DNA of 64,000 nucleotides from contig JAUXAU010000007.1 in NCBI GenBank assembly GCA_030619765.1, forward strand, positions 465 through 64,464. The letters run 5' to 3'. Positions 19,526 to 64,000 of the stretch are shown piece after piece. The stretch comes from Thermoplasmatota archaeon (lineage in GTDB: Archaea > Thermoplasmatota > E2 > DHVEG-1). How positions within the stretch are numbered: the stretch's first letter is position 1; every line of letters begins with the position of its first letter. A model generated the notes under the pieces. It had not been told where the DNA came from and did not search any database. It saw nothing but the letters and a program-made list of their open reading frames with translations. Made by a program: the position numbers and the translations under genes.

Positions 19526-19557
19526 CTTTCATGTGTCCTACCCCTAGGCACATGAAA

Positions 19558-22866: not shown

Positions 22867-23249
22867 AAGAAATGGTAAAAAAAGAAAAAGGAATTTCATT
22901 CAACCTTATCTCACGCCGGAAATTAAATGATCTTTCATCCTCAGAAAAACTGAAGTATATACTGAAAGAAGTCAGACAGGGAAGGATCTTGGTGCTTGAA
23001 CATGGTCTTACACCAACAGAACAAACAGCCCTTATAGAGAATACTATGAAAGAGATAGACCACGACACATTTATTGGTATCGAAATGGGAGGATATGAAG
23101 AAGAGAAAACTAGCTTCTTCCAAAGGGTTTTTGGCGTAATAAAAAAACCACGTATGACTGTAATAGGGCCTGCGCATCTTCTAAAAATGGTCCATAAAGA
23201 TCATGATAAAATAGAAACCACGATAATATCTGGTAAAGGAGTAAGCTAA
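22863..23249 (+). CDS. DUF2073-like archaeal protein
   Basis: ATGA-coupled to the GTPase gene. The size (128 aa) and the position between the GTPase and the Zn-ribbon protein match the conserved archaeal triad as I recall it. Confidence 0.6.
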   Translation: MKEMVKKEKGISFNLISRRKLNDLSSSEKLKYILKEVRQGRILVLEHGLTPTEQTALIENTMKEIDHDTFIGIEMGGYEEEKTSFFQRVFGVIKKPRMTVIGPAHLLKMVHKDHDKIETTIISGKGVS

Positions 23250-23788
23250 TGCCTCACCAGTGTCTTAAATGTGGACATGTATTCGAAGAAGGATCATCTC
23301 AGTTGTTAAAAGGATGTTCAGATTGCGGTGGAAATCGATTTTTCTTTACAAAACAACCGTTAGATGAAAACGAGAGAAATATTATTAGCAGCGAAGTAAA
23401 TAAAGACATAACCTCCAAAATAATGGAGACATTAATGGAGAAAAATAAAGACGGCATTGACAAATCAGGAAAATGGGTTACAATAAAACCAAAAGAAATT
23501 CGAAAGATAATCAATGAGAAAATAATCGAAAACGGAGATGAATTAAAAACAGAGAAACAAGAAACTATAGAGCCGATAGACGATGAAAGACGCAGGGCAA
23601 TCATTGAAAAAATCAAATCCGAAGTAGATGAAATTGATTCTCCAGAGACAATAGGCATTGAAAAACCTGGTAAATATAGTATAGACATAAAGGGCCTTTT
23701 AGAGGAAGAACCCATTATTATACAAAAAGATGGTTCGTATACCATCCATTTACCTTCTGTTTTTAAAATGATTGATAAAAAGAAATAA
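23249..23788 (+). CDS. Zn-ribbon-containing protein (DUF2072/COG3364-like)
   Basis: N-terminal CLKCGHVF...GCSDCGG zinc ribbon, then an acidic/charged region. Translationally coupled to the preceding gene. Confidence 0.65.
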   Translation: MPHQCLKCGHVFEEGSSQLLKGCSDCGGNRFFFTKQPLDENERNIISSEVNKDITSKIMETLMEKNKDGIDKSGKWVTIKPKEIRKIINEKIIENGDELKTEKQETIEPIDDERRRAIIEKIKSEVDEIDSPETIGIEKPGKYSIDIKGLLEEEPIIIQKDGSYTIHLPSVFKMIDKKK

Positions 23789-34292: not shown

Positions 34293-34302
34293 GGTGAAAA
34301 AC

Positions 34303-47887: not shown

Positions 47888-50092
47888 TTATTTATGATTT
47901 GATAAAAGTTTATCGATTTTTTTATGTATATCATCGCTTTCTTTAACTTCAGTCTTTTTGCATAGTTTTTCAGTTAATTCGATCTCTACTTCTTCATCGT
48001 TTTTCTCTGACGTATCAACTTTTTCTTCTACCGTTAATGTAAATCTGTAACTTTTTGGATAAATAAATAATACTATTAATGTTACAACAAGAATCAAGAA
48101 CAAGAGTAGCAGGAATGACAATGGCAATTCTCTCTCTTTTTCAGGTTCTTCCTCTTTATCAATAATAACAACCTTCATTGAGGAGGCATTTGTAAAATTA
48201 TCATTATCTGTAACTTTAAGGGTTACTGTATGGTTACCTGGCTGAGCATATGAATGCACTGGATTTTCCAAATATGATTTATTGCCATCACCAAAGTCCC
48301 ATGTATAATTGATTATCGTTCCATCTGGATCATAGCTCCCATTACTGCTGAAGATAATATTTTCATTAATGTATCCAGAATATGGACCATTGATTTGTGG
48401 TATTGGCAAGTGTAGTGACGGTTCGAGCTGTATTATGATTAAATTGTGAGGCTCTGAAGTTGTTATTGCTTCATCGTCGTCCTTTACCTGTAATCTAACT
48501 GAGTAATTTCCAGGTGTTGAATAATTCCAAGTGATTTTTAAGTCTTCTAACCAGTTAGTATCATATACTCCATCGTTATTAAAATCCCAGCGGTATTTAG
48601 TAATGTATCCATCTGGATCATAACTGTAATATGCATAGAAAATGAGTGTTTCATTTACAAATCCAGTATTTGGACCTGTAATATTTGCTATTGGATGCTT
48701 GTTTGGCGGTGGTGTATATCCTCCACCACCTGGTGGAGGTTGAGAAGTTGGCTCTGGTTTAGTTGTAAAATAATAAGTTGCTGTTGTATTGTAAATGCCA
48801 TCATCTACAATTACTCGCCAGTAATATAAGGTAGAATACGAGCTAGCTTGTGAGTATGTCCAATAAACAGTTGAGTTTGCAGATATATTGGTGTCGTTTT
48901 GGCGTAGAATCCATGAGCCGGTTGAGTTTTCATACCAATAAACTGTAAGGTTATCACCCTCAATGTCATGAACGTCTACATGACATATAGGTTGTAAGTC
49001 AATATGTGTATTTCTATGAGGTGGATATTCATTTGATATCGTTGGAGCACCTTGTATAGCTGTTGTAAACAAAAATGTCTCATTAACCCAGGTGCCATTA
49101 CCATAATCAGTTGCATTGACATAAACTGTATAAGTTGTATTATATTGCAAACCAGATAATGGACAGGCTTTTTGTCCAGTTATATCATTATTTGCAGAGG
49201 CATTTCCAACATCAGGATGAGTTTCAATAGTCCAGTTAAATGTATCATTTTCAGGATCTTCAATTGTAATGTAATAATATGGTGTTGCTATCGATACGTC
49301 TGTTGATTGATTTGCCGGAATTGGATTAGATATTGTAAGTGGTTGATTATCTACTGTTGTAAAATGAAAAATTGCTGTTGTGTTTTGTATCGTATCGTTT
49401 ACGATTACTTTCCAATAATAAGTTTCTGAATAATTTGTTGCTTCAGTAAAAGTCCAATAATAAGTTCCATTTGGTACCGATGAATTAGTTTGTCTTAAAA
49501 CCCAGCATCCAGTTGAATTTTCAAACCAATAAATTGTCATGAGATCTTCATCTACATCACTGACCTCAATATGACAAGTGACATTAATTGCAATATTTAT
49601 AGAAGTATTTTGAGGGTATTCATTGTTATGTATAATTGATGGTTGATTTGGCCTTGTAGCAAATACCCATGTTTCTGATCTATTCTCATATTCTGAATCA
49701 TTAGCTATTGCATACCAATAGCAAAATCTCCCTTTTATTGCTTCATTCCATACAACCGAAGCTGTTGACCAATCTGAAGGAACGTTATTGTCAACTCCTA
49801 TAAGAGCATCGTTTGAAGCATTATAGAAATAAACATCTACGAAATCTCCAGTTTCATCAAAAACATTAACACTTAGAACTACAGGGACAGGAATATCTAC
49901 AGATTCATTTGGTGGATCTGGATTTATAGGTGCAGCTGGAGGTCGATTTGGTATAGGATTAAAGGAAATCGTTATCGAATCTTCTGTTTGGCCTTTCATC
50001 GTATCGATTAAAAAAGGTGAGGTAAATGGCGCTAATAATATTGTTAAAAATAAGAACAATGTAACTGCTCTGTATGGTTTTCTTCCTTCCAT
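47888..50092 (-). CDS. Surface protein with four Ig/fn3-like modules, two PKD domains, TM anchor and a cytoplasmic tail
   Basis: Signal peptide. Modules contain D[VI].[DE][DG][DE].[LM]T[IV]YW[FY]ENSTG[CS]W[IV]LRQ. PKD motifs YSYDPDGYITKYRWDFNNDG...YSVRLQVKDDD and GSYDPDGTIINYTWDFGDG...HTVTLKVTDND. TM LPLSFLLLLFLILVVTLIVLFIY. Confidence 0.85.
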   Translation of the reverse strand: MEGRKPYRAVTLFLFLTILLAPFTSPFLIDTMKGQTEDSITISFNPIPNRPPAAPINPDPPNESVDIPVPVVLSVNVFDETGDFVDVYFYNASNDALIGVDNNVPSDWSTASVVWNEAIKGRFCYWYAIANDSEYENRSETWVFATRPNQPSIIHNNEYPQNTSINIAINVTCHIEVSDVDEDLMTIYWFENSTGCWVLRQTNSSVPNGTYYWTFTEATNYSETYYWKVIVNDTIQNTTAIFHFTTVDNQPLTISNPIPANQSTDVSIATPYYYITIEDPENDTFNWTIETHPDVGNASANNDITGQKACPLSGLQYNTTYTVYVNATDYGNGTWVNETFLFTTAIQGAPTISNEYPPHRNTHIDLQPICHVDVHDIEGDNLTVYWYENSTGSWILRQNDTNISANSTVYWTYSQASSYSTLYYWRVIVDDGIYNTTATYYFTTKPEPTSQPPPGGGGYTPPPNKHPIANITGPNTGFVNETLIFYAYYSYDPDGYITKYRWDFNNDGVYDTNWLEDLKITWNYSTPGNYSVRLQVKDDDEAITTSEPHNLIIIQLEPSLHLPIPQINGPYSGYINENIIFSSNGSYDPDGTIINYTWDFGDGNKSYLENPVHSYAQPGNHTVTLKVTDNDNFTNASSMKVVIIDKEEEPEKERELPLSFLLLLFLILVVTLIVLFIYPKSYRFTLTVEEKVDTSEKNDEEVEIELTEKLCKKTEVKESDDIHKKIDKLLSNHK

Positions 50093-50789: not shown

Positions 50790-53700
50790 TTACGATACTA
50801 CAGATTTAAAGGTGACAACAAAGGACAACGGGTCAACTGTGGATGACGTGGTAGCCATGATCAAGTTCAAATCAAAAGTCTGCCAGGAACTTATGCTTAG
50901 GTTAGTGACAAAAGTATCATATGTAGTGTTGATGTTGGTCCAGCTGCCACCACCACTTTTATTATATTGAAGACTGAAATTATTAAAACCTGGAGTTGCA
51001 GTGAGATTCCATTGGAAACCAGTCGTAGAATTGGTAGCATTACTTGATTTGACTAGTATGTTTAGAGCAATGTTTCCCTCGTTTGTGAGGTTGAAATAGT
51101 AACCCGTTGTAGCGTTGGAGCTACCTATCCATACAGTTCCCTGGTTCCACTGTGATGGTGTAACATTTACGGAGATATCAATAACTGTCAAGCTATTCGA
51201 TTGTAGAGTAATTCCATCTTGATAACCGTCATTTGGAGTAACTTCACATTGCCACACATCATTAACTGAGGTTTCTTGTGATACAATTGTGTTTGTTTTG
51301 TTCTGAGACAGTGCAAGCACCTGCTCTGGAGAAAGTGCAAAATCATATATTCTGACTTCGTCTAAAGTACCATTGTAATACCTCTGTGCAGCTCCTGGAC
51401 GTCCGATGTGCATTTCATCCTGCCATGTTGAGGTATTGTATGGAAGATCGTCGCTTGTCAGGTCGTCCGAGTCAACCAAGGTACCATTTACATACATTTT
51501 CGTTATATTATTGTCAAAATCCCAGGTTACGACCACATGATACCATATATTTGGCGTTAGATTTCCTGAAAACAACCATGTGTAGTTGGCATCTGGGACG
51601 AGAGAAGGAAGCCCATCCTCATGGTCACCGTAAAAGAATGTGAAGCCCTTCAGCCCAAAACTAGTGTTGAAGTGCTGGATACTGAGATGGAATTCTTGAC
51701 CATCTGAGTCTGAATATCCGTTTTCACTGGAGCCACCTGCCCAGACAAGGAGTTGTGGCGTTGCAAATGAATCTGGCTTTGCCCATACTTCTATTGATCC
51801 TTCATTTCTGTTTATAGTTGAATTAGGAATGCCATGGATATAATCATCAATTCCATCAAATTGATATGCTCCTTTTCCATCGTAACCCATTGTTTTGTTC
51901 CAAGTAGCTCCTGATACCGTTCCATCATGTCCTTGTCCAGAATAATCTTTTGTATAGGTTGAACTACTCCCACCTTCAAATGGCATGTTCAATAACATTA
52001 TTGAAGAGCTATTTTTATACCAGTTGAAGATATTCTTTATAGGATCTCCATCGGGATCTGATGTTGACTGGTTATAACAAGTTAAATTTTCATTTGTAGA
52101 ATTTGTTCCATAAGTTGAATTAAGGATAGGTGTGGTATGTGTTGGTTTGTTGTTGATTTTTTTACATCTAGCATCAGCACTACTTGGCGGTGTTTCATCA
52201 GATGAACCAGATTTCTTCCCTATGCTATAAAACTCATAATAACCGGTATCATTTGGAAAGTCAAAGTTCCAGCTCCATGGTGAGCTGGTATCGGGGTTGT
52301 TTGCATCAGACCATATACTCCAGTTTGAACCTCCTCCCCATGTTAAGTTATCAGTCGAATATCGATACCATAACGTTACATTGTCCAAACTGGAATCTCC
52401 TGTAGCATTGATAGTCAGTGGTGATGATGTTACATTATATGGGGTGATGGTATCAACTGATGTGTTTATCGCTTCGGTCATAAAATGATACGTTTCATTG
52501 CACCAATTAGTGCCATCAGTAAGGTTTACACTCCAATAATACATAATACTGTAATTACTAAAGTTACTGTTGGTTTGTATTATGTTTACAGAACCACTAC
52601 TGGTATCAATGCTACTATTGGTTGCAAACAAAGTCCAGCTACCACTACTATTGCTATACCAGTATGCAGTAAGCGTATCGTCATCAGCATCGTCAACAGT
52701 CACATTCAATGTTGGAGTCGGGCTGATATCTGTGGAGCCATTACTTGGAAGCTCACCTGTTATTGTCGGAGCAGTATTCTGTTGCTCGCTGCTAAAATTA
52801 AGGAATGTACCGGGATTGTTTATCGTATTATAGCTTGTGTTTATCCAACTGCTGTTTCTTGCTGTGTTTGAGATGCGGACTTCATCGATTGTGCCCTTGA
52901 AAATTTCATCTGTTGATATGGACCCATTGTCCATGCTAGACCCAATTGAAAGTTTGGCTGTCCCGCTGTGGATGGTTGTTACAATAGCCTTCTCGCTATC
53001 CCATGCTCCATTGATATAAAGTATCCATTTTGATCCAGTAGATACTCCAACGAGGTAATACCATGTATTAGTGGCTAATTGTATCGCAGATATTAGTTCA
53101 TCTAAATATGTACCATCGGCTGAAATCATAATGCAAGGCTTTGTCCAGTCCATCAGATACAGAGAGTAAGATCTTTGTGGATTTGTACTATTCCAATCCC
53201 ATTTAGTCACTATTCCTGAGTACTGATTTTTAAAGTCTGTCGAGTATATCCACGCCTCGATTGTAACCGTATCAGTGATATCTAAACTCGCTGCATCAGG
53301 AGCTACTACGGCATCATCTGTACCGTCAAGAACATCAGCTCCGTTTACTTTGCCTGTTGCATTTTGATTTAAACCGCCATAAGGTGTGCCATCATTATTA
53401 TTTGCAGTTGCATCATAATGAGTTCCAGATGTCTCATTAAGGTGTTGCACCAACACATGATTAGAATCCCAAACACCAGTTATATTCTCCTGACTGCTGC
53501 ATGTAGAGTTGCCGTAATACATCCAAATCTTAGTATCACTACTACTGCTGAGGCTGGTTACATTTACCCATGCGACTAGCTCACCATTGGTGCTGTTAAA
53601 GAGCTCTATCTCATGGTTGAGCTGCGTACTATTATCAGAATATAAGACAAATGCGATATCATCACCATCATTCTGAGCATGCGATGCAAGATCAGAATCA

Positions 53701-55757
53701 GAAGAATTATACACTAATACTGGAAAGTTAATAAGATCAGCATCAACCTGTGACGAGTTGACGGTAATAAGCTTCCGGTAACCCCAATCAGAACTCCACC
53801 AAGTGCTCCCTTCAAAATCAAACACATCACTCCCATCATCAGGAGAAACTAGGTAACTAATCCGTCCTGAAGATGGTTTACAGCCACAGTCAATCTCCTC
53901 CCAACTTGGTGCCTTAAACCATATCCGTAATGTACAGGGGCTCTGTAATGTAAACGACTGAGAATAGGCAACTTGATCTAACTCTCTTAACTCAGATGGT
54001 AATTTCTTCCTTTGCATATCAATATTCTTTTCAATATGAGACACCGGCCTACCAGCACGATACACCCAGTAATTCAAAGAAACGTCATATCCTGTTGTTT
54101 TAACAACGCGTTTTTCATCATCTCCAGAATCATATAGAAGCTCAATTTTTTCACACACTAGAGCATCAGAAAACAACGGAGCAAAGATAACATCCGTTCC
54201 ATGAAGCCCATCAACAGTTCTTTCCACATAAAACCGAGTCCCAGGCACTACATCGATATGTTCTTCTTTTGGATCCACAATGGAAACAGTACTTTCATTT
54301 CCATAAATAAAAAACTGACTTATGGCAGATTTATTCTCATAACCAGGAGCAGCACACCACACCTTAAACTCATAAGTTCCACTAACATCAAACGATCTCC
54401 TGTAAACATAATAACCATTGCTGTAGTTCATACGCTTTGGCTCAGTCCAAGTTCCAACATTGAACGAAATAAGACATGTAGCATTCTCAATACTCTGATT
54501 GAAACTGCTATAATTCGCATAAAACGTAATCATATCTCCAACATATTTACTCACATTATCGGTATCATCCCAAACAAACAAATCAGATACATTCAAGGAA
54601 ACATTTCCCAAAGGTACATCTAAAACATCAAACATAAGTTCTTCTTCCACAGTCTCATTCAAATAAATAACAGTAACATTTACCACATAACTACCCGCAA
54701 CAATCGGAACAAACCGATATTCAAATAAGCCATCTGCCACATTTAAACCAACAGACAAATTAATATCAGAGCCGGCAATAAGAAGACCTGCAGATGTGTT
54801 TATCAACGAATTATTAAACGAGACAACGCCACTGATCAACACAGTTTCATTAATGACATGGACCAGCTTATCACTCTGCAAAGTAAGATTTAAACCAGTA
54901 GAAATAATTATTTCATTTTCCCCAGCAGATGTCTCATTTGTCCCTGTTTCTGAGGATTGATTTTCATCAGGGATCTCTTCAGGTAGAACACTCCATCTCA
55001 CCCCAGCAGAGTAAGGCGTGTTATTCACATCTAACCCTGTAATCGTAACAATATGCTCACCAGGCATAACGTCATAAACAAACCAAACCCCATGCCACAA
55101 ATGCAATGACGTAGTATTATCAACAAGCAACAAATCAATAATCTCAACACCTGCCATATCAGCAGATACAGAAGTAACAAAATACACATCAGGAATAGCA
55201 ACATTCACAAACATAGTATCATTATTATAGATATTTTCAGGGCTAAGAGAAATAGAAAGAACATCTATACTAGAACCACCTTGTGAAGAGAGTATAGATG
55301 CAGAGGTGATAGCGGCAAAGATCAAGAGAACCGATAACAATATAGATAGCACCTTTTTTACAGGTAATTTGATCAAACTCGAGGTTTTTTTCACCTCAAT
55401 ATTCATTAAAAAACGTTTTTTATCAGAAACTTGGCTAGAGACGGGAAGATTTTTTTTCTTTAATGTATTTTTTGAATAAGTAAAACCATTTGACTGGACA
55501 GTTAATTTCTTTGATGATGAAGCATTATTTAAAAATTGACTCCCATTATAATCTTCAGCCTTATCCTCAAGAGAAGAAACCTTTTTTTTAGCGAGAATGT
55601 AATCCACTAAATCATTGACGTTATAGCTATATTCAGCTTTTGTTTTAGCTGAAAAAAAACAATCTAAATTTTGATAGATATGGCTATCTAGTTTTTCTTT
55701 TTTATGTCTCTTATTACTCTTTATAAATTTCCCTGAGAGTGCTGAAATAATCCCCAT
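50790..55757 (-). CDS. Giant type-II-anchored surface protein (1655 aa): Ig-like region, DUF2341, two LamG/ConA-like domains and fn3-like modules
   Basis: GGAGGG sits 3 nt before the ATG. About 130 cytoplasmic residues precede the TM VLSILLSVLLIFAAITSASIL. WGYRKLITVNSSQVDADLINFPVLV...DGDDIAF...LNHEIE...VAWVNV...IWMYYGN matches DUF2341. LamG-type ends DEVRISNTARNSSWI and LDEVRIYDFALSPEQV. The module DDADDDTLTAYWYSNSSGSW is shared with the PKD protein. Confidence 0.85.
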   Translation of the reverse strand: MGIISALSGKFIKSNKRHKKEKLDSHIYQNLDCFFSAKTKAEYSYNVNDLVDYILAKKKVSSLEDKAEDYNGSQFLNNASSSKKLTVQSNGFTYSKNTLKKKNLPVSSQVSDKKRFLMNIEVKKTSSLIKLPVKKVLSILLSVLLIFAAITSASILSSQGGSSIDVLSISLSPENIYNNDTMFVNVAIPDVYFVTSVSADMAGVEIIDLLLVDNTTSLHLWHGVWFVYDVMPGEHIVTITGLDVNNTPYSAGVRWSVLPEEIPDENQSSETGTNETSAGENEIIISTGLNLTLQSDKLVHVINETVLISGVVSFNNSLINTSAGLLIAGSDINLSVGLNVADGLFEYRFVPIVAGSYVVNVTVIYLNETVEEELMFDVLDVPLGNVSLNVSDLFVWDDTDNVSKYVGDMITFYANYSSFNQSIENATCLISFNVGTWTEPKRMNYSNGYYVYRRSFDVSGTYEFKVWCAAPGYENKSAISQFFIYGNESTVSIVDPKEEHIDVVPGTRFYVERTVDGLHGTDVIFAPLFSDALVCEKIELLYDSGDDEKRVVKTTGYDVSLNYWVYRAGRPVSHIEKNIDMQRKKLPSELRELDQVAYSQSFTLQSPCTLRIWFKAPSWEEIDCGCKPSSGRISYLVSPDDGSDVFDFEGSTWWSSDWGYRKLITVNSSQVDADLINFPVLVYNSSDSDLASHAQNDGDDIAFVLYSDNSTQLNHEIELFNSTNGELVAWVNVTSLSSSSDTKIWMYYGNSTCSSQENITGVWDSNHVLVQHLNETSGTHYDATANNNDGTPYGGLNQNATGKVNGADVLDGTDDAVVAPDAASLDITDTVTIEAWIYSTDFKNQYSGIVTKWDWNSTNPQRSYSLYLMDWTKPCIMISADGTYLDELISAIQLATNTWYYLVGVSTGSKWILYINGAWDSEKAIVTTIHSGTAKLSIGSSMDNGSISTDEIFKGTIDEVRISNTARNSSWINTSYNTINNPGTFLNFSSEQQNTAPTITGELPSNGSTDISPTPTLNVTVDDADDDTLTAYWYSNSSGSWTLFATNSSIDTSSGSVNIIQTNSNFSNYSIMYYWSVNLTDGTNWCNETYHFMTEAINTSVDTITPYNVTSSPLTINATGDSSLDNVTLWYRYSTDNLTWGGGSNWSIWSDANNPDTSSPWSWNFDFPNDTGYYEFYSIGKKSGSSDETPPSSADARCKKINNKPTHTTPILNSTYGTNSTNENLTCYNQSTSDPDGDPIKNIFNWYKNSSSIMLLNMPFEGGSSSTYTKDYSGQGHDGTVSGATWNKTMGYDGKGAYQFDGIDDYIHGIPNSTINRNEGSIEVWAKPDSFATPQLLVWAGGSSENGYSDSDGQEFHLSIQHFNTSFGLKGFTFFYGDHEDGLPSLVPDANYTWLFSGNLTPNIWYHVVVTWDFDNNITKMYVNGTLVDSDDLTSDDLPYNTSTWQDEMHIGRPGAAQRYYNGTLDEVRIYDFALSPEQVLALSQNKTNTIVSQETSVNDVWQCEVTPNDGYQDGITLQSNSLTVIDISVNVTPSQWNQGTVWIGSSNATTGYYFNLTNEGNIALNILVKSSNATNSTTGFQWNLTATPGFNNFSLQYNKSGGGSWTNINTTYDTFVTNLSISSWQTFDLNLIMATTSSTVDPLSFVVTFKSVVS

Positions 55758-56002
55758 CTACCCTCCAGATGGTAGTTATAATAAAAAGTTTGTTTATAAA
55801 CGTTCCTTTACCTACAAGAATAAAATCTATAAAATTAACAAATTATAATAGCTGCTAAATGGTCGTATAGACGAAAAATTAAAAAAGATTAATAGTATGT
55901 TTGCACATTATTATCATACACTTCTCTAATAAAATTATCATGTATACCAGGGTTGAGGAGGGATACGTGGTATGTATTTCTTCCAAAAAGGAAGGTCGTA
56001 AA

Positions 56003-57502
56003 ATGGACGAGTTTAAAAATGATGAACTTGAAAAAAAAATAATTGAACTAAAAAATAGAGAATCAGAGTTGAAGAATAAAATACAGGAGATTGGCCAGAT
56101 ACATTTAGAGATGAATAATAAACAGGAGGAAATAGAATCATTGAATACAGATCTAGAGACAAGGAACAGGATAATTGAAGACCTTAAAGGACAGTTAGCA
56201 GAAAGACAAACAATGCTTGTAGAAACAACCGGAGCTGTCGAGAGAATACATACCGATCTAGAACAAAAACAAAAAGAGATAGAAGCAAAGAACGAAGAAT
56301 TACGATCAGCCAGATCAGAACTAGAAAACAAGCAAGAAGATTGTAACTCTTTGAACGCAGATATAGAAACAAGGAACAGGATAATTGAAGACCTTAAAGG
56401 ACAGTTAACAGAAAGACAAACAATGCTTGTAGAAACAACCGGAGCCTTCGAGAGACTACAAAAAGAGATGGAGAAAAAAAATAACGAGATTGACTGGACA
56501 AGAACCAATCTATCCGATAAAGAAAATGAATTTGAAAAAGCACAGCATAGTCTACAAATGACGGAGGAGGAACTGCACAATAAAGAAGAAATAAAAAGAT
56601 TAAAAGAGAATCTAGAAAACAAAAATAAAGAATTGAGCTTGATTAATCAACAACCTGAAAATAAAGAAATTGAAAAATCTCAGTTACCGATCGATCTAGA
56701 AAAAAGTAAGAAAGATTTAAGAAGATCCGAAGAAATAAAACTTGTAAAACAACAATTTAGAGACATACAAAATGAGACGGCTCGATTACAAACTGAACTT
56801 AAAACAATACTTGAAGGCATTGACATAAATAATATAGATACTGGGTCACAAGAAATAGAACACGAGGAATTGAAGAAAGAACTAAAGGCGAGTAAATCTG
56901 CATTAAATTGGTTTAACGCAGAGTTAGAAGCAAAACGAGATGAGATGAGATTAAAAGAAAATGAGCTCAGTATGTTAAAGAACCGATTAGAAAGTAGAAA
57001 CACTGAAATCAAACAGATGAAAACGGAGCAAATTCGAAGTCAACCTGAACTAGAAAAGGAGCAACAAGAGATAGAAACATTTAATGAAGCCCTAGACACA
57101 AAAAATGCGATAATAGCACAAATGAGTAAACAGATAACAGAAAAACAAGAAGTGATTTTAGAAAAGACAAAAACTGCTGAAGAAATGCAAAAACAGCTAG
57201 ATCAAAACAATCAAGAGCTAATTCAAAGGACGAACGACGTATCACAATTACAAAAAGAGTTAAAACAGGATCGTGAAAATCTAGAATCCATTACTAGCAC
57301 ACTTTGCAATAAAGATAATCTCTTGGAGCAATTACAACAACATCTGAAACAAAAAAATCAGGCGGAATCAGAATTCGGACAAGAAACTGATGGTGAAGAA
57401 AATATACCTTGGAAGGATAATCTGAGAATTTATAATGAAATCGATAAAAAGCTAGTAGACAATGATCTTAAAACAAAAAAATTAAAAGAAGAATTGGAAT
57501 AA
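56003..57502 (+). CDS. Long coiled-coil protein (SMC-arm-like, no ATPase motifs seen)
   Basis: I prefer the ATG at 56003 (MDEFKNDELEKK), preceded by AAGGAAGG. Uninterrupted E/K/Q/L heptad-like sequence with an internal 70-aa duplication. Confidence 0.65.
   Translation: MDEFKNDELEKKIIELKNRESELKNKIQEIGQIHLEMNNKQEEIESLNTDLETRNRIIEDLKGQLAERQTMLVETTGAVERIHTDLEQKQKEIEAKNEELRSARSELENKQEDCNSLNADIETRNRIIEDLKGQLTERQTMLVETTGAFERLQKEMEKKNNEIDWTRTNLSDKENEFEKAQHSLQMTEEELHNKEEIKRLKENLENKNKELSLINQQPENKEIEKSQLPIDLEKSKKDLRRSEEIKLVKQQFRDIQNETARLQTELKTILEGIDINNIDTGSQEIEHEELKKELKASKSALNWFNAELEAKRDEMRLKENELSMLKNRLESRNTEIKQMKTEQIRSQPELEKEQQEIETFNEALDTKNAIIAQMSKQITEKQEVILEKTKTAEEMQKQLDQNNQELIQRTNDVSQLQKELKQDRENLESITSTLCNKDNLLEQLQQHLKQKNQAESEFGQETDGEENIPWKDNLRIYNEIDKKLVDNDLKTKKLKEELE
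56154..56245 (+). repeat. Internal near-identical DNA repeat, copy 1
   Basis: 92 nt with 4 mismatches to 56364-56455. The offset is 210 nt (70 codons, in frame). Confidence 0.9.
56364..56455 (+). repeat. Internal near-identical DNA repeat, copy 2
   Basis: Encodes ETRNRIIEDLKGQL[AT]ERQTMLVETTGA[VF]ER, as does copy 1. Confidence 0.9.
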
Positions 57503-57508
57503 GCAGTG

Positions 57509-58132
57509 CTATTCAAGAGAAACTATTTGTTTCATAGGTAGCGGAGCATTCACCTTTATTGTTCTCGTTGTCCCTTTCCCTAGAAGGAAAGTTATAGTCA
57601 TGGTATTTCCTTTTTTCATAGCAAAATTTTCTGATAGCTTGATTATAATATATGTCATATCGGTACTATCATCTATAGTATTATAATCAACTAAAGATTT
57701 ATCTTTATCAAGAACTACAACAAAACTAAAGTTATCACAATTCATATTATTCCATATTGGATGTTCGAATAATGAATTTGTGCCGATAAATTCTGCTTGT
57801 TCACCATAATATAGCATTTTTATTTGTTCCCCGTTACATAGTTTTATAATTAATTCTGATACATTCATATCAATAGAAAAAAGAGGTTTTATCAATATGG
57901 CAATTTTTTGAATTCGTGATTCTTCTCCAGTAGAATAAAATTTACCCATTACATCTTTTATTTGTATGTATGTGGAGATCTCATCAACAATATCATCTAC
58001 CATCTTTTCTAAATCCTGTTCCGATATGTCACTTGAGTTGTCTGTCAAAACAGATGCAACAGTTGCAGCTATCAAGATAAAGCTAATTAGCAGTATAGCA
58101 GTTGCAATTCCTGTAGCTCCTTCTTTATTCAT
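57509..58132 (-). CDS. Archaellin-like/ArlF-G-like protein with a class III (type IV pilin-like) signal
   Basis: MNKEG/ATGIATAILLISFILIAATVASVL has the short charged leader, Gly and hydrophobic helix typical of prepilin-peptidase substrates. The remainder is beta-rich. Confidence 0.6.
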   Translation of the reverse strand: MNKEGATGIATAILLISFILIAATVASVLTDNSSDISEQDLEKMVDDIVDEISTYIQIKDVMGKFYSTGEESRIQKIAILIKPLFSIDMNVSELIIKLCNGEQIKMLYYGEQAEFIGTNSLFEHPIWNNMNCDNFSFVVVLDKDKSLVDYNTIDDSTDMTYIIIKLSENFAMKKGNTMTITFLLGKGTTRTIKVNAPLPMKQIVSLE

Positions 58133-58335: not shown

Positions 58336-58466
58336 GTTTTGTAATTTTTACAGTTTGATTTTCTACCGGGCAAGTTTTATATAGTGTTACTTGAGAACAA
58401 TTTACATGAAAACTATTACCATGCTGTTAAATCGCATGGAAATGAATGAAATGAAGGTGGTAAAAA
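58336..58466 (+). promoter_or_regulatory. Promoter/5'UTR module upstream of the archaellin gene, homologous to 63867-63992 (minus strand)
   Basis: 58336-58408 matches the reverse complement of 63920-63992 at 61 of 73 positions. The match includes TTTTTACAGT[TC]TG, TACCG, a TTTATATA TATA box and CACTTGAGAACAAT. The UTRs share CGC..GGAAATGAA. An extra CAGTCTGTTTTTTT box lies at 58272-58285. Confidence 0.7.
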
Positions 58467-59354
58467 ATGGAAAAGAAATATTTGGAAAGGCTGATAGGAA
58501 AGTACTGTAAAGTCGTCACCAAAGAACCCGGAGAAGAAAGAGCTAGCGTTGTTACTGGCATCCTTGAAGATGTCGACTACAAAGATGGTTTTATTTTAAT
58601 TGATTCTAGTCAGGGATTGGGGTGCCTTAGAATAAGTACCGTCATTGCAATAAAACCAGGAAAGAAAAGAAGAGTGGAAAAAAGAAAAATTAAAGTTGAA
58701 GAAGAAGCAATGGTTGGTATAGGGACTCTTATCGTTTTCATCGCCATGGTTTTAATCGCAGCAGTTGCCGCGAGTGTACTGATTACTACCAGTGAAACAT
58801 TACAGTCAAGAGCGAGAACCGTGGGAACAGCAACCATTCGAGAAGTCTCGGCAGGGGTATCAATTGAATCAATAACAGGATACACAAATGTAAATAAAAC
58901 AAAAATTGAATATATCGCACTCACTGTACGGCCTCGAGCAGGTTCAAAAGATATCGATCTAGGCTTATGCACTTTATCAGTCCTATATGACGATCTAACG
59001 ATTCTCACCTTAAATGAATCTCTCGTACAAACTGTAAATACTGACAACAAAAGTGTCTTTGAGACACCGATAACATCAGGATCAAGCTACACGATATTAG
59101 ATAACACGAGCTCAATAAAATTTGGTGTCATCTCAATTCATGATCCAGATTCGTCAGTCACTACCACATGTGGTATGAACAGCGGAGATCGAATAATCAT
59201 TATTGTAAACCTTAGTGCCATCATAACTGGCCAGGGTGGATTACCACCAAGAGAATCGGTAGAAGGTACATTGACACCAGAAATAGGGATAATGGCCCAA
59301 TACGATACAACTGCACCTGCAGTGTTCTCAAAAAGAATTGTAAATCTATCGTAA
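58467..59354 (+). CDS. arlB: Archaellin (ArlB/FlaB family) with an unusual 81-aa N-terminal extension
   Basis: GIGTLIVFIAMVLIAAVAASVLITTSETLQSRARTVGTATIREVSAGV...GSKDIDL...VEGTLTPEIG is the canonical archaellin. The ORF starts 243 nt upstream at an ATG preceded by GGTGG, and that part encodes an Sm-like-looking domain. Confidence 0.85.
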   Translation: MEKKYLERLIGKYCKVVTKEPGEERASVVTGILEDVDYKDGFILIDSSQGLGCLRISTVIAIKPGKKRRVEKRKIKVEEEAMVGIGTLIVFIAMVLIAAVAASVLITTSETLQSRARTVGTATIREVSAGVSIESITGYTNVNKTKIEYIALTVRPRAGSKDIDLGLCTLSVLYDDLTILTLNESLVQTVNTDNKSVFETPITSGSSYTILDNTSSIKFGVISIHDPDSSVTTTCGMNSGDRIIIIVNLSAIITGQGGLPPRESVEGTLTPEIGIMAQYDTTAPAVFSKRIVNLS

Positions 59355-59383: not shown

Positions 59384-60535
59384 TTATTTATTTTTAAATT
59401 CTTTAATAATTGCAATCTCAGCTTTTTTACCGTTAAAAACAGTTGGCCTAGTACTAACCTCTACAACCAATTTATTGCTATCTTTAGTCAAAAACACAGC
59501 CTCATAACCAGAAGAATCAACGCCTTTTAATCTATCCAGATAATACTTCTCAATCTCAAGATAACATTCAGGAGTAATAAAATCAAACAAACTTTTACCA
59601 ATAACTTCATTTATATCATAACCTAGCAACTCAACAAAGGGACGATTTACCTGTTTTAAAATACCACGCTGTACAATGGCAACACAATCTTGAATATTAT
59701 CAATAAATATATAATGCTCACTGGTTTCTTTGCTCGTATTGACATCCAAAGCCAATCTATTATTGCTTTTAGAAGGTTTAACATGAATGTTTTCATCCAA
59801 TAGAGAAATAAAACGTCGTCTGAATAATCTTTCTTCCTGAACAAGATTCTTCCTTCTTTCTTCGATTTCTGCTCCAAGACGGTTTATTTTTCTAGTCTTT
59901 CTTTCAAGTTCTTCCATCATAGTCTTTGCTTGCTGTAAATCGTCATTGATCAATGTCCTAAGGTCAGATAGAGTTTCTTTATGCAGGGTTAATATTTCAT
60001 CAATACCCTCTATCCGGAGAGGTCTATCGACAACCGAAACCTTAGGAGCTTGAGGTTCAACTCTCGCAATGATAGATTTACCCCATGCAATTTTAGTCTT
60101 TAATGGCTCTTTTTTTGGAGTGGCAATAATCTCTGGAAACATCAAAATGTGTTTATGATCTATAACGACAATAACTAATAAACAACCAAATATCAGGTAA
60201 TGAAAAAAATTAGAAATAGCCATCTCTCTACTAGCAATCGCTAATCCTAAACCACCTAGCATTACGCCCGTCGGCAAGAATGAAAAAATGAGATTCTTTT
60301 TACTAACTTTTGCATGAAGATAGGAGTCAAGAACGACTACAATTAGAGATAATAGTATTAAATGCAAATTATTTACTCCAGACAGGACGTAAAAAGGTAT
60401 TAAATCAAATATAAACTCTGGTTCATAAGCTGCTCTAAAAAAGAAAATAAAAACAAATTTAACAAAGATGAATATAGTTATAAACACGAAAAAACAAAGC
60501 GGGAAGTACCAGAAGATATAATTAACCTTTTTCAT
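59384..60535 (-). CDS. Membrane protein with N-terminal TM helices, a coiled coil and a C-terminal PAS domain (no output domain)
   Basis: The first 140 aa carry hydrophobic helices. A coiled coil follows (DLQQAKTMMEELERKTRKINRLGAEIEERRKNL). PAS-like region: CVAIVQRGILKQVNRPFVELLGYDINEVIGKSLFDFITPE...EAVFLTKDSNKLVVEVSTRP. Confidence 0.7.
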   Translation of the reverse strand: MKKVNYIFWYFPLCFFVFITIFIFVKFVFIFFFRAAYEPEFIFDLIPFYVLSGVNNLHLILLSLIVVVLDSYLHAKVSKKNLIFSFLPTGVMLGGLGLAIASREMAISNFFHYLIFGCLLVIVVIDHKHILMFPEIIATPKKEPLKTKIAWGKSIIARVEPQAPKVSVVDRPLRIEGIDEILTLHKETLSDLRTLINDDLQQAKTMMEELERKTRKINRLGAEIEERRKNLVQEERLFRRRFISLLDENIHVKPSKSNNRLALDVNTSKETSEHYIFIDNIQDCVAIVQRGILKQVNRPFVELLGYDINEVIGKSLFDFITPECYLEIEKYYLDRLKGVDSSGYEAVFLTKDSNKLVVEVSTRPTVFNGKKAEIAIIKEFKNK

Positions 60536-61211
60536 AAACTGCTCTCATTATTTTTCCAATATCTGTCTTTTTGATAATATACCGGGTTCCAATTGCAGCT
60601 GCAAACAAGGCTATTAAATCCAAAAGATATGGAGGTATCTCTACAGCTATTGAATTATCTAACCCAGGAATTATAATAATAGTGCCACTTCTGATCAAAT
60701 CCTCAGTGGTGTAATCTAATTGCAATGTTGCTGTTGATCCTCCTCTATCGCTAGCGATAATATTCAAACGTGTGAACCAAGTGGTATGAAAGACAAACAA
60801 TATTTCAAGGTTACATCTGTCTTCTACTGTCTCCACTCCATCTGAATGATTATAGGAGCATTTTTTTGTCAATAGTAAATTATTTTCTTTTGATGTTTCG
60901 CTGAATTCATTTACTTTCTCATATGATGTTAAATCGGCATATTGTTTATAAAGAAATTCAGTTTTTTCCTCGCTAGCATCTTCTAAAACTACGCTAACTG
61001 AGCATATGTCCTCCCAAGAATTGTAATCGGAAATAGTGAGATATATTCTAATAAAATTGTCCTGTTGCACTAAACGTATCATGCTGTATTGTGGAGGAAC
61101 ATTCAGCACTCCTACACCTGCCTGACCAGCATTTGCATTGATAGAAGAAAACGTGATAAACAAGGTTGTTGTTAAAATGGCTAGTGAAAAAATTTTCCAT
61201 CCTTTCTTCAT
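60522..61211 (-). CDS. Secreted beta-rich protein with C-terminal TM anchor (229 aa)
   Basis: Signal peptide (SSINANA/GQ) and C-terminal helix LLDLIALFAAAIGTRYII. I recognise no family. Confidence 0.55.
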   Translation of the reverse strand: MKKGWKIFSLAILTTTLFITFSSINANAGQAGVGVLNVPPQYSMIRLVQQDNFIRIYLTISDYNSWEDICSVSVVLEDASEEKTEFLYKQYADLTSYEKVNEFSETSKENNLLLTKKCSYNHSDGVETVEDRCNLEILFVFHTTWFTRLNIIASDRGGSTATLQLDYTTEDLIRSGTIIIIPGLDNSIAVEIPPYLLDLIALFAAAIGTRYIIKKTDIGKIMRAVYEKG

Positions 61212-61220
61212 TTAGGTGTC

Positions 61221-62564
61221 TTACCTCCTGCGGTGTCTAATCTGAGCAGAAATCATGTATCCTACAACTAAAATAATACATAATGCTACAACGATTGCGG
61301 TAGTGGATATGTTTATCCCTCCAGATATTTCTCGTTGTAGAGGCGGACCTATGGTTATTGATGTAGTGTAAGTCTGTGTTGCTCCCTCTACTGTTAACTC
61401 GTAGGAAATGGTTCCAACCTTGTTTTCTCTAATTGCCTCGACTTTAATAGTCACAGCATATTCTGATATATTTGTAGAAGTGATTGTTAAGGGTGTTCCC
61501 TCTTGATCCTCACCAGAGACCTTCAGTACAGCCACATTTACTTCGTCCCCTGAGACGTCTAATATTGCCTTTCCTTCTCCAGAAATGTAAACAGTTAAAT
61601 ACTCGATATCTCCTTCATTCATTTCAAGACTTTCTTCGTATTGAAAGACAATACTTGTCCCCTGGATTGGTTGGATTTTATAGTTACTATGTCCCACGGA
61701 TATTTTCAGATCAGCTGCGTTAATTTCAATGAATGTTTCAAATGTGATCACAGCAGTGGTAATAATTAGAGAGCTTGGAATAGATCCACTTACACCTCCT
61801 GATACCTTTAATATTCCAGGTTGCCATGAACCTGAATGCAGTGTTATATTGTGGTTAAAAGTAGACGAAGGAGTAAGTTTTTCACTAGAATTAGTTACTT
61901 CAATTTGACTATTATATGTTCCATAATCAACTGCAATAAATAATGGAATATTGCCTACATTCTCAATTATGAATTCATCGTCTCCCGGAAGATCCATCTC
62001 TTCGAAGGGGTTTACTTTAAATCTAATTGTATCAGCATGGCTTCTTGCAAGCCCAACCATTGGTTTTTCCAATACCACATTTGCAGTATGTATTTGATCG
62101 GTGTCCCTGTAAATTTCTAACGTCCAGTTTTCATAATAACTTGTAATTTCAGGTAAAGTATCTTTTACGCCTAGGCAAAAGGAAAATGTGTTACCAGTCT
62201 TTTGACAGCTTGTATCTTTGATATAAGAGTATCCGTCATATTCTTTTATATCAGTCCATTCCTGGCTGTTTGCATTATATCTCCATTCATAATAGTTAGA
62301 TTCATTTCTTTCTCCTATAGAAGGCATAGAATCCCCTTTGTAGAATCTCAGGATTAATTCTTGGAAAACCTGGTCATCAAGTGTTACGTTTATGTAATGC
62401 CAAACACCAGCAACAATTACTGGGTTGCCAAAACGTGTCTTTGCTAGTTCACCTATCATATGTATCTCAACAGTAATGTCGTCAACAGCGGTAACAGTTG
62501 AAAATATTGGTAAAAAACTAATCATAAACAGTACAAAAAAAATCACATAATTTTTAATACCCAT
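61221..62564 (-). CDS. Secreted multi-domain beta-rich protein with C-terminal TM anchor (447 aa)
   Basis: Signal peptide. Ig-like segment IRFKVNPFEEMDLPGDDEFIIENVGNIPLFIAVDYG. C-terminal helix TAIVVALCIILVVGYMI followed by RHRRR. Confidence 0.55.
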   Translation of the reverse strand: MGIKNYVIFFVLFMISFLPIFSTVTAVDDITVEIHMIGELAKTRFGNPVIVAGVWHYINVTLDDQVFQELILRFYKGDSMPSIGERNESNYYEWRYNANSQEWTDIKEYDGYSYIKDTSCQKTGNTFSFCLGVKDTLPEITSYYENWTLEIYRDTDQIHTANVVLEKPMVGLARSHADTIRFKVNPFEEMDLPGDDEFIIENVGNIPLFIAVDYGTYNSQIEVTNSSEKLTPSSTFNHNITLHSGSWQPGILKVSGGVSGSIPSSLIITTAVITFETFIEINAADLKISVGHSNYKIQPIQGTSIVFQYEESLEMNEGDIEYLTVYISGEGKAILDVSGDEVNVAVLKVSGEDQEGTPLTITSTNISEYAVTIKVEAIRENKVGTISYELTVEGATQTYTTSITIGPPLQREISGGINISTTAIVVALCIILVVGYMISAQIRHRRR

Positions 62565-62705
62565 CCCGTCACCTCATAGTATTAAATTATAAAATATATC
62601 CAACTGTATTTCTTATCTTTTAAAGTCTATTAAAGTTTTTGTATTAACGGAAATTTACTATAGAAATGAAAAAATACCTTCAACTGGAATTTTTTATTGC
62701 TCCAT

Positions 62706-63866
62706 TTATGTTTGTGTTCTCAGATGGTAATAAATCGTTGCATTATACTCCCCTGGTAACTGAGCAAGCGGAATAGTACACCTGTACTCTACATCATTAG
62801 TTGTTAAGCTTGTATCATTGTTTTCTGCGCCTTGATAAGTTGGTCCGTCGGTTCCCCACAGATACAATGGTCCAGTTCCCGGGAATGGAGTTACTGAGGT
62901 TAGGTTTCCACCTCTCAATGAAACTGTTGTATTGGACATATTTGCAGTAGGATGTGATTTATGAAAGAATGTGTCCACATCAACTGATAAAGAGTATTTT
63001 ACATTTGACCGTGTATTAATAGTAATGTTAGAGTCCGCTGTTGCATTTTCACCAGGGAATCCTTGGATAGTTAGTATTCCAGCACTTACTATTTCTGTAT
63101 AAGAATTAACTCCAAACTCGTCAATTATTGATACTGTACTCGGTCCTGATGCATCTTCTCCACTGTCGGTAACTGATATTTTGAAATTCCAGGACCAAAT
63201 GTCATCGATAGCATTGGTTGTATTGTCCCAGACACCGTCTCCAGGTGCATATCTGAATTGATAACCAGGTATAAACGAAAATGTTAGGCGATGACATTCA
63301 GTGGAATCAGGACAATCATCTGGAACTGTTACATCTGTTTCGGTAAAGCTTCCCTTTGTTACTTCATCATCAGGAAACAACATAGTGTACTTTGCAGTTC
63401 CCGTGGTATTCTCATACCGCAAAAACATGTTTAAATTTCCACCTAGATTCCCGCTATTATTGTATGTCGTACTATCGTCGCCATTGTCAAGCCAGGCAGT
63501 GATATCTATATATTCTATATCATCCCATCCTTGATCACTTCTGATGCTGATGCAAAATTTATATTTCCGATTAACGTCGATTTGTGAATTCAACTTAGAA
63601 ACACCTGTTGCGGTTTGAAAATCATACCAATTAATTATCGGTTTAGTTTCCAAAACCGGTGGTCCTGGCCCTGGTCCAGGTCCTGGAGGTTCTGGTTCAG
63701 GTATCGGAGTTGTTATACTAAGGTATGAACTGCTATGATAGTATGACGTTATATCTCCTGCATTTGCGATTCTTACTATAGGGATCACAGCCATCAGACC
63801 TGTGGATAAAGTAGAAAACAATAGTAAAACTAATAAAAAAATAGTACAAATTTTTCTCTTTACCAT
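62706..63866 (-). CDS. Secreted protein (386 aa) with a PEPEPPGPGPGPGPP linker, no anchor
   Basis: Signal peptide, a Pro/Gly linker, then a beta-rich Asn/Thr/Asp-rich body. It is the first gene of a four-gene minus-strand operon. Confidence 0.55.
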   Translation of the reverse strand: MVKRKICTIFLLVLLLFSTLSTGLMAVIPIVRIANAGDITSYYHSSSYLSITTPIPEPEPPGPGPGPGPPVLETKPIINWYDFQTATGVSKLNSQIDVNRKYKFCISIRSDQGWDDIEYIDITAWLDNGDDSTTYNNSGNLGGNLNMFLRYENTTGTAKYTMLFPDDEVTKGSFTETDVTVPDDCPDSTECHRLTFSFIPGYQFRYAPGDGVWDNTTNAIDDIWSWNFKISVTDSGEDASGPSTVSIIDEFGVNSYTEIVSAGILTIQGFPGENATADSNITINTRSNVKYSLSVDVDTFFHKSHPTANMSNTTVSLRGGNLTSVTPFPGTGPLYLWGTDGPTYQGAENNDTSLTTNDVEYRCTIPLAQLPGEYNATIYYHLRTQT

Positions 63867-63992
63867 TGTTTTTCACATCTCTTCATTTCCCGCGGTTTCT
63901 TAGATACGACAAGTATTATCGTGTATATTGTTCTCAAGTGACAATATATAAATCTTTGGCGGTAAAAAAACAGACTGTAAAAATAACAAAAC
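63867..63992 (-). promoter_or_regulatory. Promoter/5'UTR module upstream of the 386-aa gene, homologous to 58336-58466
   Basis: See 58336-58466. The TATA box TTTATATA (reverse complement of 63945-63952) lies about 80 nt upstream of the ATG at 63866. Confidence 0.7.
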
Positions 63993-64000
63993 AACAAATT

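Follow-up and report, generated by a model that had tools for sequence, protein, structure and literature searches.

Archaellins and type IV pilins are textbook examples of subunits with very short, featureless leaders, and prediction tools and reviews assume a cleavage motif near the N terminus. Longer cytoplasmic leaders, cut by a dedicated prepilin peptidase before the helix, occur in type IVb and Flp/Tad pilins (TcpA, CofA, and BfpA). At about 13 to 30 unstructured residues, they are the nearest precedent for an enlarged leader, and we know of no such pilin leader with a folded domain or free-standing homologs. Known archaellin leaders measure 5 residues in Pyrococcus furiosus, 11 in Sulfolobus acidocaldarius, and 11 to 12 in methanococci. 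A review (PMC10117864) gives lengths of 11 to 12 residues, with a minimum of 3 to 5, and describes the ArlK/PibD site by its charged residues, a small residue at -1 (consensus Gly), and Gly at +3. In a 2025 structural paper, the 26-residue leader of Oxyplasma meridianum is termed "unusually long." The gene described here, at positions 58467 to 59354 on the plus strand of a 64,000-nucleotide stretch from a Thermoplasmatota archaeon (contig JAUXAU010000007.1; the whole stretch is called the window), encodes a protein of 295 amino acids (aa) in which an archaellin is preceded by 81 additional residues.

From residue 82, the product is an ordinary archaellin of the canonical ArlB/FlaB type (7OFQ, Methanocaldococcus villosus ArlB1; 5O4U, P. 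furiosus FlaB0; 8RH5, O. meridianum ArlB), with which it shares the hydrophobic helix, Gly at +3, the small residue at -1, charged residues, the beta-rich domain, and sequons. Unlike these archaellins, it has an 81-residue pre-sequence holding a highly conserved domain that is predicted to fold independently. The protein reads as the precursor of an archaellin preceded by an autonomous, folded pro-domain of the Sm type, an arrangement that a large uncultured clade has conserved. The preferred reading, to which we assign a probability of roughly 0.6, is that of a pre-archaellin whose class III signal peptide has been enlarged to 81 residues and whose N-terminal barrel would be released by the peptidase and act in trans. 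The gene is composed of the following parts.

58456-58460, plus strand: Shine-Dalgarno (SD) sequence GGTGG, 6 nucleotides (nt) upstream of ATG 58467
58467-58658, plus strand: N-terminal domain (N domain), aa 1 to 64, Sm/SH3-like small barrel, predicted to be cytoplasmic, as judged by AlphaFold2 (AF2), Foldseek, the ratio of nonsynonymous to synonymous differences per site (pN/pS), and stand-alone homologs
58659-58709, plus strand: linker, aa 65 to 81 (GKKRRVEKRKIKVEEEA), extended n-region of the class III signal peptide, K/R-rich and modeled with a predicted local distance difference test (pLDDT) score of <50
58710-58826, plus strand: mature N terminus and hydrophobic alpha-helix, aa 82 to 120 (MVGIGTLIVFIAMVLIAAVAASVLI...), with predicted cleavage between A81 and M82 (58709/58710)
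58827-59354, plus strand: globular beta-rich archaellin domain, aa 121 to 295, and stop codon, supported by PF01917 and PDB matches

Extent, initiation, and conservation of the fused reading frame

The archaellin core MVGIGTLIVFIAM begins at ATG 58710, in frame with ATG 58467, and the open reading frame (ORF) continues for 81 codons (243 nt) upstream of it, exactly as stated in a preliminary description of this DNA made from the sequence alone. At the base composition of the window (35% GC), a stop has a probability of 7.2% per codon, and a run of 81 codons free of stops would arise by chance with a P of about 0.002. The SD sequence that had been claimed for ATG 58467 was found at 58456-58460 with a spacing of 6 nt, no SD sequence precedes ATG 58710 in the window, and we agree that a start at 58710 would leave the archaellin without any leader.

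A protein search with the full ORF returned 2079 proteins at E <= 0.001. Each of the 120 listed homologs covers 97 to 100% of the query at 72 to 97% identity, with lengths of 285 to 321 aa. They originate from metagenome bins of Thermoplasmatales/Thermoplasmata, including SCGC AB-540-F20 and SG8-52-1, which we take to be genomes of MBG-D (Marine Benthic Group D)/Thermoprofundales. A profile scan with the N domain, using one genome per GTDB species, yielded 111 relatives, all from metagenome-assembled genomes (MAGs) of Thermoplasmata/Thermoplasmatota, and 80 loci were retained. From the retained and earlier loci, 76 fused ORFs (75 distinct proteins) were extracted, and two tandem fused copies were present in many genomes. 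Conservation of the extension among homologs, a point raised in the preliminary description, was thus confirmed by the species-representative genomes.

The region upstream of the first ATG contains GGTG or AGGTGA at a distance of 5 to 9 nt in 76/76 fused ORFs, and no such sequence precedes the +1 codon in any of them (0/76). The +1 codon is ATG in 18/76; otherwise it specifies Asp (GAT), Val (GTA, GTC, or GTT), Ala (GCN), Ser (TCA), Leu (TTA), Glu (GAG), Ile (ATT), Phe (TTT), or Asn (AAC). Between the end of the barrel (IKP motif) and position +2, 47/76 fused ORFs have no ATG, GTG, or TTG at all. Because these 47 have no start codon in the linker and the +1 codon is mostly a non-start codon, the archaellin of most species can be made solely as part of the fusion. 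Judged by this codon usage at +1, ATG 58710 is a lineage-specific Met and not a conserved start, and initiation at this codon, which had been named as a possible objection to the fusion, cannot be general. Translation of the whole ORF from ATG 58467 as one polypeptide is close to certain, and the promoter and structured 5' untranslated region in front of this ATG, described below, also speak for it.

Codon comparison of 1500 pairs gave a pN/pS of 0.16 for the N domain (residues 1 to 64), 0.25 for the hydrophobic helix, 0.54 for the globular domain, and 0.71 for the linker (65 to 81), at a pS of about 0.7, where synonymous sites are close to saturation. With the lowest ratio in the protein, the N domain is its most strongly constrained part. 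The extension is real coding sequence, given the coverage of the homologs, the pN/pS of 0.16, the confident fold, and the stand-alone homologs described below. Across a clade of MBG-D-type Thermoplasmata, the fusion is of ancient date and subject to selection.

Predicted fold and family of the N domain

The AF2 model of the N domain, built on an alignment of 18 sequences, had a pLDDT of 83 overall and of about 92 for residues 1 to 60. It consists of a helix (3-8) and five strands (13-18, 27-37, 42-47, 50-55, and 59-64), with residues 65 to 81 disordered, and the same barrel recurred in the model of the full-length protein. Among the top 50 Foldseek neighbors in the PDB, most were Hfq, archaeal SmAP1, LSm, and Sm proteins, and the others included GerQ, MnxE, and the C-terminal domains of biotin ligases. 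The target-normalized TM-score (TMt) reached 0.83 in the Hfq/Sm group, with E values of only 3e-3 to 6e-2. The domain shares its topology, in which five strands with strong bends come after a helix at the N terminus within about 60 to 65 residues, with Sm, LSm, and Hfq proteins (SmAP1, 1LOJ; Hfq, 1KQ1; Methanocaldococcus jannaschii Hfq, 4X9C), and by eye the patterns G-x-L-x-x-x-D ... h-h-L-h-D and L-R-I-x-x-h-h-A-I are similar to Sm1 and Sm2. Unlike those proteins, the barrel has no significant match to an LSM or Hfq profile and carries a family signature of its own, GKYCKIVTKEPG ... AIKP, with two conserved Cys residues. To our knowledge, no Sm-type protein has been found in fusion with a secreted filament subunit.

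For residues 1 to 81 of the window protein, Pfam gave just a sub-threshold match to RimP_C (C-terminal SH3). Scans of single family members likewise remained below threshold, with matches to RimP_C (PF17384) in 16/18, DUF2642 in 5/18, and DUF6897 in 5/18. No NCBIfam match was obtained for the N domain, and its profile found nothing among PDB sequences at E <= 10. The identity as RimP, a name given by JGI to some stand-alone members, was rejected, the match being partial, C-terminal, and of 19 bits (cutoff, 26.3); the N-terminal domain of RimP is absent from these proteins, and there was no NCBIfam RimP match.

The N domain is, by its predicted fold, a small barrel of the Sm/SH3 type that lies outside every curated family. 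The expectation of an Sm-like beta-barrel and a basic stretch ahead of the archaellin site and helix was supported by Pfam, AF2, and Foldseek, and the fold prediction proved confident, with a pLDDT of about 92 over residues 1 to 60. The narrower proposal of an Sm/LSm or DUF2642-type domain held at the level of the fold and through the sub-threshold RimP_C, DUF2642, and DUF6897 matches, but found no backing in an Sm/LSm profile match.

Linker, predicted cleavage site, and mature archaellin

The linker has an isoelectric point of 10.2 with eight K/R and four E residues and ends in EEEA, i.e., acidic residues followed by A at -1. Its sequence varies across homologs, yet its composition and the A or G at -1 are conserved, and the whole pre-sequence, 81 residues long in the window, measures about 70 to 100 residues in the homologs. 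The junction follows the consensus [charged]-[charged]-[A or G] / x-[V/I]-G-I-G-T-L-I-V-F-I-A-M with charged residues at -2 to -4, and the residue at -1 is A in 65/76 and G in 11/76 fused ORFs. In the archaellin alignment, the Gly at +3 (G84) is invariant, as is the helix segment GIGTLIVFIAM.

The window protein thus has the features of a class III motif, namely, EEEA/MVG with the small residue at -1, Gly at +3, and a helix at 85 to 120 in the full-length AF2 model, and TIGR02537 (arch_flag_Nterm) matched aa 79 to 109. In alignments with solved archaellins, M82 falls on the first residue of the chains deposited as 7OFQ (M. villosus ArlB1/B2) and 8RH5 (O. meridianum ArlB), and A81 falls on the Gly before AVGIGTL in 5O4U (P. 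furiosus FlaB0). At 81 residues from the start, the cleavage motif is outside the range of about 3 to 30 residues at the extreme N terminus where short leaders place it. By analogy with pilin-like processing, removal of the leader at A81/M82 by an ArlK/PibD-type peptidase is very probable.

PF01917 (Arch_flagellin) matched aa 82 to 278 with an E value of 9.6e-29 and 101 bits (cutoff, 29.5), and among PDB sequences, 7OFQ and 5O4U were matched with E values of 1.7e-32 and 1.1e-31, respectively. The full-length AF2 model showed the long helix (85 to 120) and a beta-rich domain, separated from the barrel by a linker with a pLDDT of <50. All six N-x-S/T sequons of the protein are found at or after aa 143, i.e., in the mature part.

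Stand-alone barrels and decay of the archaellin half

A hidden Markov model (HMM) search of 1.84 billion cluster representatives detected the barrel in 92 clusters (50% identity) at E <= 1e-3, most of them proteins of 52 to 100 aa and a few of them fusions of about 290 to 310 aa. The distant stand-alone members, 25 to 55% identical to the barrel, are located in loci with EMG1, HAD hydrolase, and RadC genes or with eIF-5A, DHH, and PFOR genes, have unrelated upstream DNA, and lack archaellum genes in the locus. Both a distant stand-alone gene (locus L002) and a fused archaellin (locus L076) are present in the complete genome CP070798. The distant stand-alone gene looks like the ancestral cytoplasmic protein, and the origin of the barrel thus lies in a family of cytoplasmic proteins that stand alone.

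The close stand-alone members (70 to 88% identity) keep the archaellin-type promoter, hairpin, and SD sequence and are, as their sequences indicate, secondary products of a frameshift in the linker or of decay or deletion of the archaellin half. The idea that small stand-alone genes are the normal state and that the window carries a fusion error was rejected, the close stand-alone genes being secondary. In loci L003, L004, and L005, the first of two tandem fused genes is split at a run of nine A residues (A9) in the linker, a run of ten (A10) would restore the frame, and the split A9 allele is identical in these three independent assemblies. At 3730-3760 in L003, this run provides a slippery heptamer, A AAA AAA, shortly ahead of the stop codon. 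By -1 ribosomal frameshifting or transcriptional slippage at the A9 run, the fusion could still be made. The Lys-rich linker is a natural fission hotspot, e.g., in L064 and in L089, where the gene is broken by a frameshift that closely follows AIKPG, its archaellin half being degenerate.

Decay was most evident in L001, in which the barrel ORF is intact (86% nucleotide identity to its fused relatives, no gaps) and the archaellin half is a pseudogene with 71% nucleotide identity, gaps, and many stop codons and frameshifts. No archaellin remnant follows the barrel gene in L040, L052, L061, L065, L081, L082, and L090, and a helix remnant of about 30 codons is left in L086; the barrel genes of all of these loci keep the archaellin promoter and 5' untranslated region (5' UTR). 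Since an intact and conserved barrel gene is retained after loss of the archaellin, the barrel is probably useful on its own. In the window, a search with two HMMs found no second, stand-alone copy of the barrel, only the fused ORF. A PF07381 gene (EarA, archaellum regulator family) was observed at 8437-8769 in L001 and at 5745-6077 in L086, 0.2 to 2 kb from the barrel-only or decayed archaellin loci of those two genomes.

Promoter, 5' UTR, and a second copy of the module

The following elements were delimited upstream of the fused gene and near the end of the window.

58375-58383, plus strand: TATA box TTTTATATA of the archaellin promoter, about 85 nt upstream of ATG 58467
58385-58399, plus strand: conserved box TGTTACTTGAGAACA, candidate initiator or operator, just downstream of the TATA box and conserved across loci
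58419-58439, plus strand: 5' UTR hairpin with CCATGC (58419-58424), a 9-nt loop, and GCATGG (58434-58439); 6-bp stem with covariation
63916-63992, minus strand: second, inverted copy of the archaellin promoter/5' module, an inverted repeat of 58336-58412 (77 nt, 83%)

In the alignment of 61 upstream regions, CTTTATATA/CTTTAAATA was the most conserved block. The bases facing each other in the hairpin were paired in 85% of cells across the 61 aligned loci, compared to 25 to 45% in slid controls. Changes on both sides of the stem were observed in 37 cells versus 13.3 +/- 2.8 in shuffles, and none of the 500 shuffles reached 37. The stem variants across loci include CCATGC/GCATGG, CCACG/CGTGG, CCGTG/CACGG, and CGTGCC/GGCGCG. 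A conserved GAAA-rich tract follows the hairpin and runs into the SD sequence. On this covariation, the hairpin is a candidate element of translational control.

The second copy of the module likewise carries the box TGTTACTTGAGAACA, and both its TATA box and its TGTCACTTGAGAACA box align with those of the archaellin module. The preliminary description had the homology with the module at 63.9 kb running right up to the ATG; the inverted repeat of 58336-58412 bears out the duplication, but similarity fades beyond 58412. The second module is situated about 50 nt before the start of gene 62706-63866 (minus strand), which leads a group of three genes on the minus strand (60522-63866) whose products are secreted or membrane proteins. 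Its own product is a secreted protein of 386 aa that contains a PGPGPGPGP linker and matched nothing in Pfam. The duplicated module suggests co-regulation of 62706-63866 with the archaellin.

Genomic neighborhood

The immediate neighbors of the fused gene in the window, which ends at 64000, are only a PAS domain protein and the following gene.

57509-58132, minus strand: divergent archaellin-like gene, 207 aa, with a 6-residue leader (MNKEGA/TGIATAILL); PF01917 E value, 2.8e-15

Its product, matched by NCBIfam as flagellin together with a weak ArlG match, probably serves either as a minor archaellin or as a component similar to ArlF/G. Syntenic genes of 207 to 208 aa are present in L003, L088, and L089, which suggests that short-leader class III substrates coexist with the fused archaellin in the same genomes. 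In L003 and L004, the fused genes adjoin genes for FlaC, FlaD/E, and a FlaF/G-like protein.

Immediately downstream of the archaellin, in convergent orientation, 59384-60535 (minus strand) encodes a membrane protein with a coiled coil and, at its C terminus, a PAS domain. The equivalent position in L003 and L004 is likewise held by a PAS protein, and the window protein could be a sensory input to motility. Upstream, 55901-57502 (plus strand) encodes a 533-aa protein with weak Pfam coiled-coil matches and an internal repeat seen by eye; in L003 and L004, its place upstream of the archaellin locus is taken by the gene for a 719-aa unannotated protein.

The window ORFs scanned comprised housekeeping genes (Nre, S3Ae, Mre11/Rad50-like, OapB and OapC, and riboflavin genes) as well as genes for large surface proteins and for a C25 peptidase. 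The 1655-aa product of 50790-55757 (minus strand) contains DUF2341 and Laminin_G_3 domains. Makarova et al. (2016; PMC4858521) associate DUF2341 with the PilY-like adhesins at the tips of type IV pili in archaea. Other large surface proteins are encoded at 26541-37872, 39930-42833 (the C25 peptidase), 43506-45677, and 47888-50092. A gene of the phage integrase family next to a PIN-domain gene (18420-20154, minus strand) may represent an integrated element or its remnant, and the genes for the origin-associated proteins OapB and OapC at 22863-23788 suggest a replication origin nearby.

Proposed processing and function

In the proposed mechanism, the usual class III leader of 5 to 26 residues would be extended to 81 residues, comprising the folded barrel (1 to 64) and the disordered basic linker (65 to 81), with the cleavage site at A81/M82-V-G84. 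The hydrophobic helix would serve as an N-in/C-out signal anchor, and the barrel and the positively charged linker would stay in the cytoplasm; because the helix would insert N-in, the barrel would never have to cross the membrane. The eight K/R residues of the linker and the confinement of all six sequons to the mature part agree with this topology. The GxGD aspartyl peptidase ArlK/PibD would cut after A81 at the cytoplasmic face, mature archaellin from M82 onward would be assembled into the filament, and one free 81-residue (9-kDa) Sm-like protein with a basic tail would be released per subunit processed. The core of solved archaellum filaments consists of tightly packed helices with no room for a 9-kDa N-terminal domain. 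As an attached barrel would be sterically incompatible with this core, cleavage seems obligatory for a functional subunit.

Before cleavage, the barrel would be kept inactive at the membrane. Once free, it would act as a nucleic-acid- or protein-binding factor, probably oligomeric, that reports archaellin flux to expression, and its candidate targets would be the conserved hairpin and GAAA-rich 5' UTR common to these genes. The survival of barrel-only genes without an archaellin tips the balance toward a trans-acting factor over a purely cis-acting domain. A function in trans after release is tentatively put forward, at somewhat less than even odds. That the barrel binds RNA or autoregulates is a matter of pure inference and unlikely, and it is even less likely that the class III signal peptidase doubles as a signaling protease, with the freed barrel binding the mRNA leaders of the archaellin and of the co-regulated gene 62706-63866.

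Cytoplasmic regulation is tied to the flux of filament components or to cleavage at the membrane in FlgM/sigma-28, regulated intramembrane proteolysis, and PilA-PilS. The resemblance to these systems is one of logic only, with no homology, and unlike their regulators, the putative regulator here is part of the precursor of the structural subunit and would hypothetically be freed by the class III signal peptidase.

Several observations weigh against a released, trans-acting Sm-type barrel. Every Foldseek E value was above 1e-3, so the Sm assignment rests on predicted structure, and no Sm/LSm (PF01423) or Hfq sequence profile was matched by the N domain in the Pfam scans. The barrel is charge-neutral (10 K/R versus 10 D/E), which speaks against RNA binding. 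The barrel-only genomes are incomplete MAGs and 80/111 hits were kept, so that an intact fused copy may be present elsewhere in them. We know of no prepilin peptidase that takes a substrate with a folded 64-residue domain upstream of the site, and no peptidase A24 or Arl motor protein was detected among the window ORFs scanned. The residue at -1 is mostly Ala, compared to Gly in the consensus given in the review (PMC10117864), and residues -2 to -4 are often acidic.

Alternative explanations

The strongest competitor is a pro-domain that acts in cis only, serving its own archaellin and being degraded after cleavage. It could be a holdase for the helix, a module for targeting or docking to the ArlJ/ArlI/ArlH/ArlCDE platform, or a brake that times cleavage to the assembled motor. 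Such a role agrees with the dominance of the fusion (76 fused ORFs versus about 10 barrel-only species), the two tandem fused copies in many genomes, a 1:1 stoichiometry with the subunit that suits a chaperone, and the split variants in which the barrel gene stays directly upstream of or overlaps the archaellin gene. It is, however, rather unlikely, considering that the barrel and its promoter are kept intact after decay or deletion of the archaellin, that the barrel family is older than the fusion and found in loci unrelated to motility, that constraint is stronger on the barrel than on the archaellin, and that canonical archaellins of other archaea have leaders of 5 to 26 residues without such a domain. 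Far less probable is an uncleaved membrane protein, with the Sm-like domain in the cytoplasm and the archaellin-like domain outside, that would sense or anchor instead of building a filament. Along its entire length, the mature part closely resembles archaellins known to form filaments (E value about 1e-32 to 7OFQ and 5O4U), the GIGTLIVFIAM helix and the Gly at +3 are invariant, and in L003 and L004, the fused genes are the sole archaellin-length PF01917 genes called, beside genes for FlaC, FlaD/E, and short FlaF/G-like proteins. The tightly packed filament core likewise has no space for the 9-kDa domain of an uncleaved subunit. These points outweigh the Ala at -1 and the acidic residues at -2/-3, which depart from the methanogen ArlK consensus, and the lack of a visible peptidase gene in the window.

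The remaining explanations dispense with the fusion protein. Leaderless archaellin could be made mainly from ATG 58710, the upstream 243 nt being a separate unit that lacks a stop codon, and the ATG at +1 in the window and its closest relatives, together with the identity of a product starting at M82 with the predicted mature archaellin, is what such initiation would give. It is nevertheless very improbable: the strong SD sequence is at 58467 with none at 58710, 58/76 fused ORFs have a non-start codon at +1 and 47/76 have no start in the linker, a leaderless protein would be devoid of the positive charges that orient the helix, and in the absence of a stop codon, a separate barrel would be obtainable by proteolysis alone. 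An artefact, in which an error of sequencing or assembly or a chance open frame fused an upstream ORF or leader to the archaellin, would be compatible with the existence of split versions and with the A runs in the linker, which are prone to single-base errors. This explanation is already refuted by the recurrence of the in-frame fusion in independent assemblies (76 ORFs, 75 distinct proteins) and across all 120 listed homologs, by strong purifying selection, and by the confident fold. In the great majority of loci, no stop codon or frameshift separates the extension from the archaellin, which settles the caution about sequencing errors in the preliminary description.

Implications

No description of this fusion was found for an archaellum or type IV pilus subunit in an incomplete body of literature that included PMC4858521, PMC10117864, PMC9585477, PMC12448462, and a 2026 TFF preprint. 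The arrangement is surprising for those who study the motility of archaea or filaments of type IV, and it brings with it a new small family of the Sm fold for which neither Pfam nor NCBIfam has a model. Where annotation pipelines look for a short leader, they may assign the start codon or signal peptide of these genes wrongly.

Thermoplasmata of the MBG-D type are widespread in anoxic marine and lake sediments. If the clade with the fusion is that widespread, the arrangement is common in nature, though absent from model organisms. It raises questions about the substrate range of prepilin peptidases, the handling of hydrophobic subunits, and the processing of subunits as a signal. Should the freed barrel bind the mRNA leaders named above, assembly flux would be coupled to post-transcriptional control, and both this principle of regulation in type IV filaments and this biological role of an Sm-fold protein would be new.

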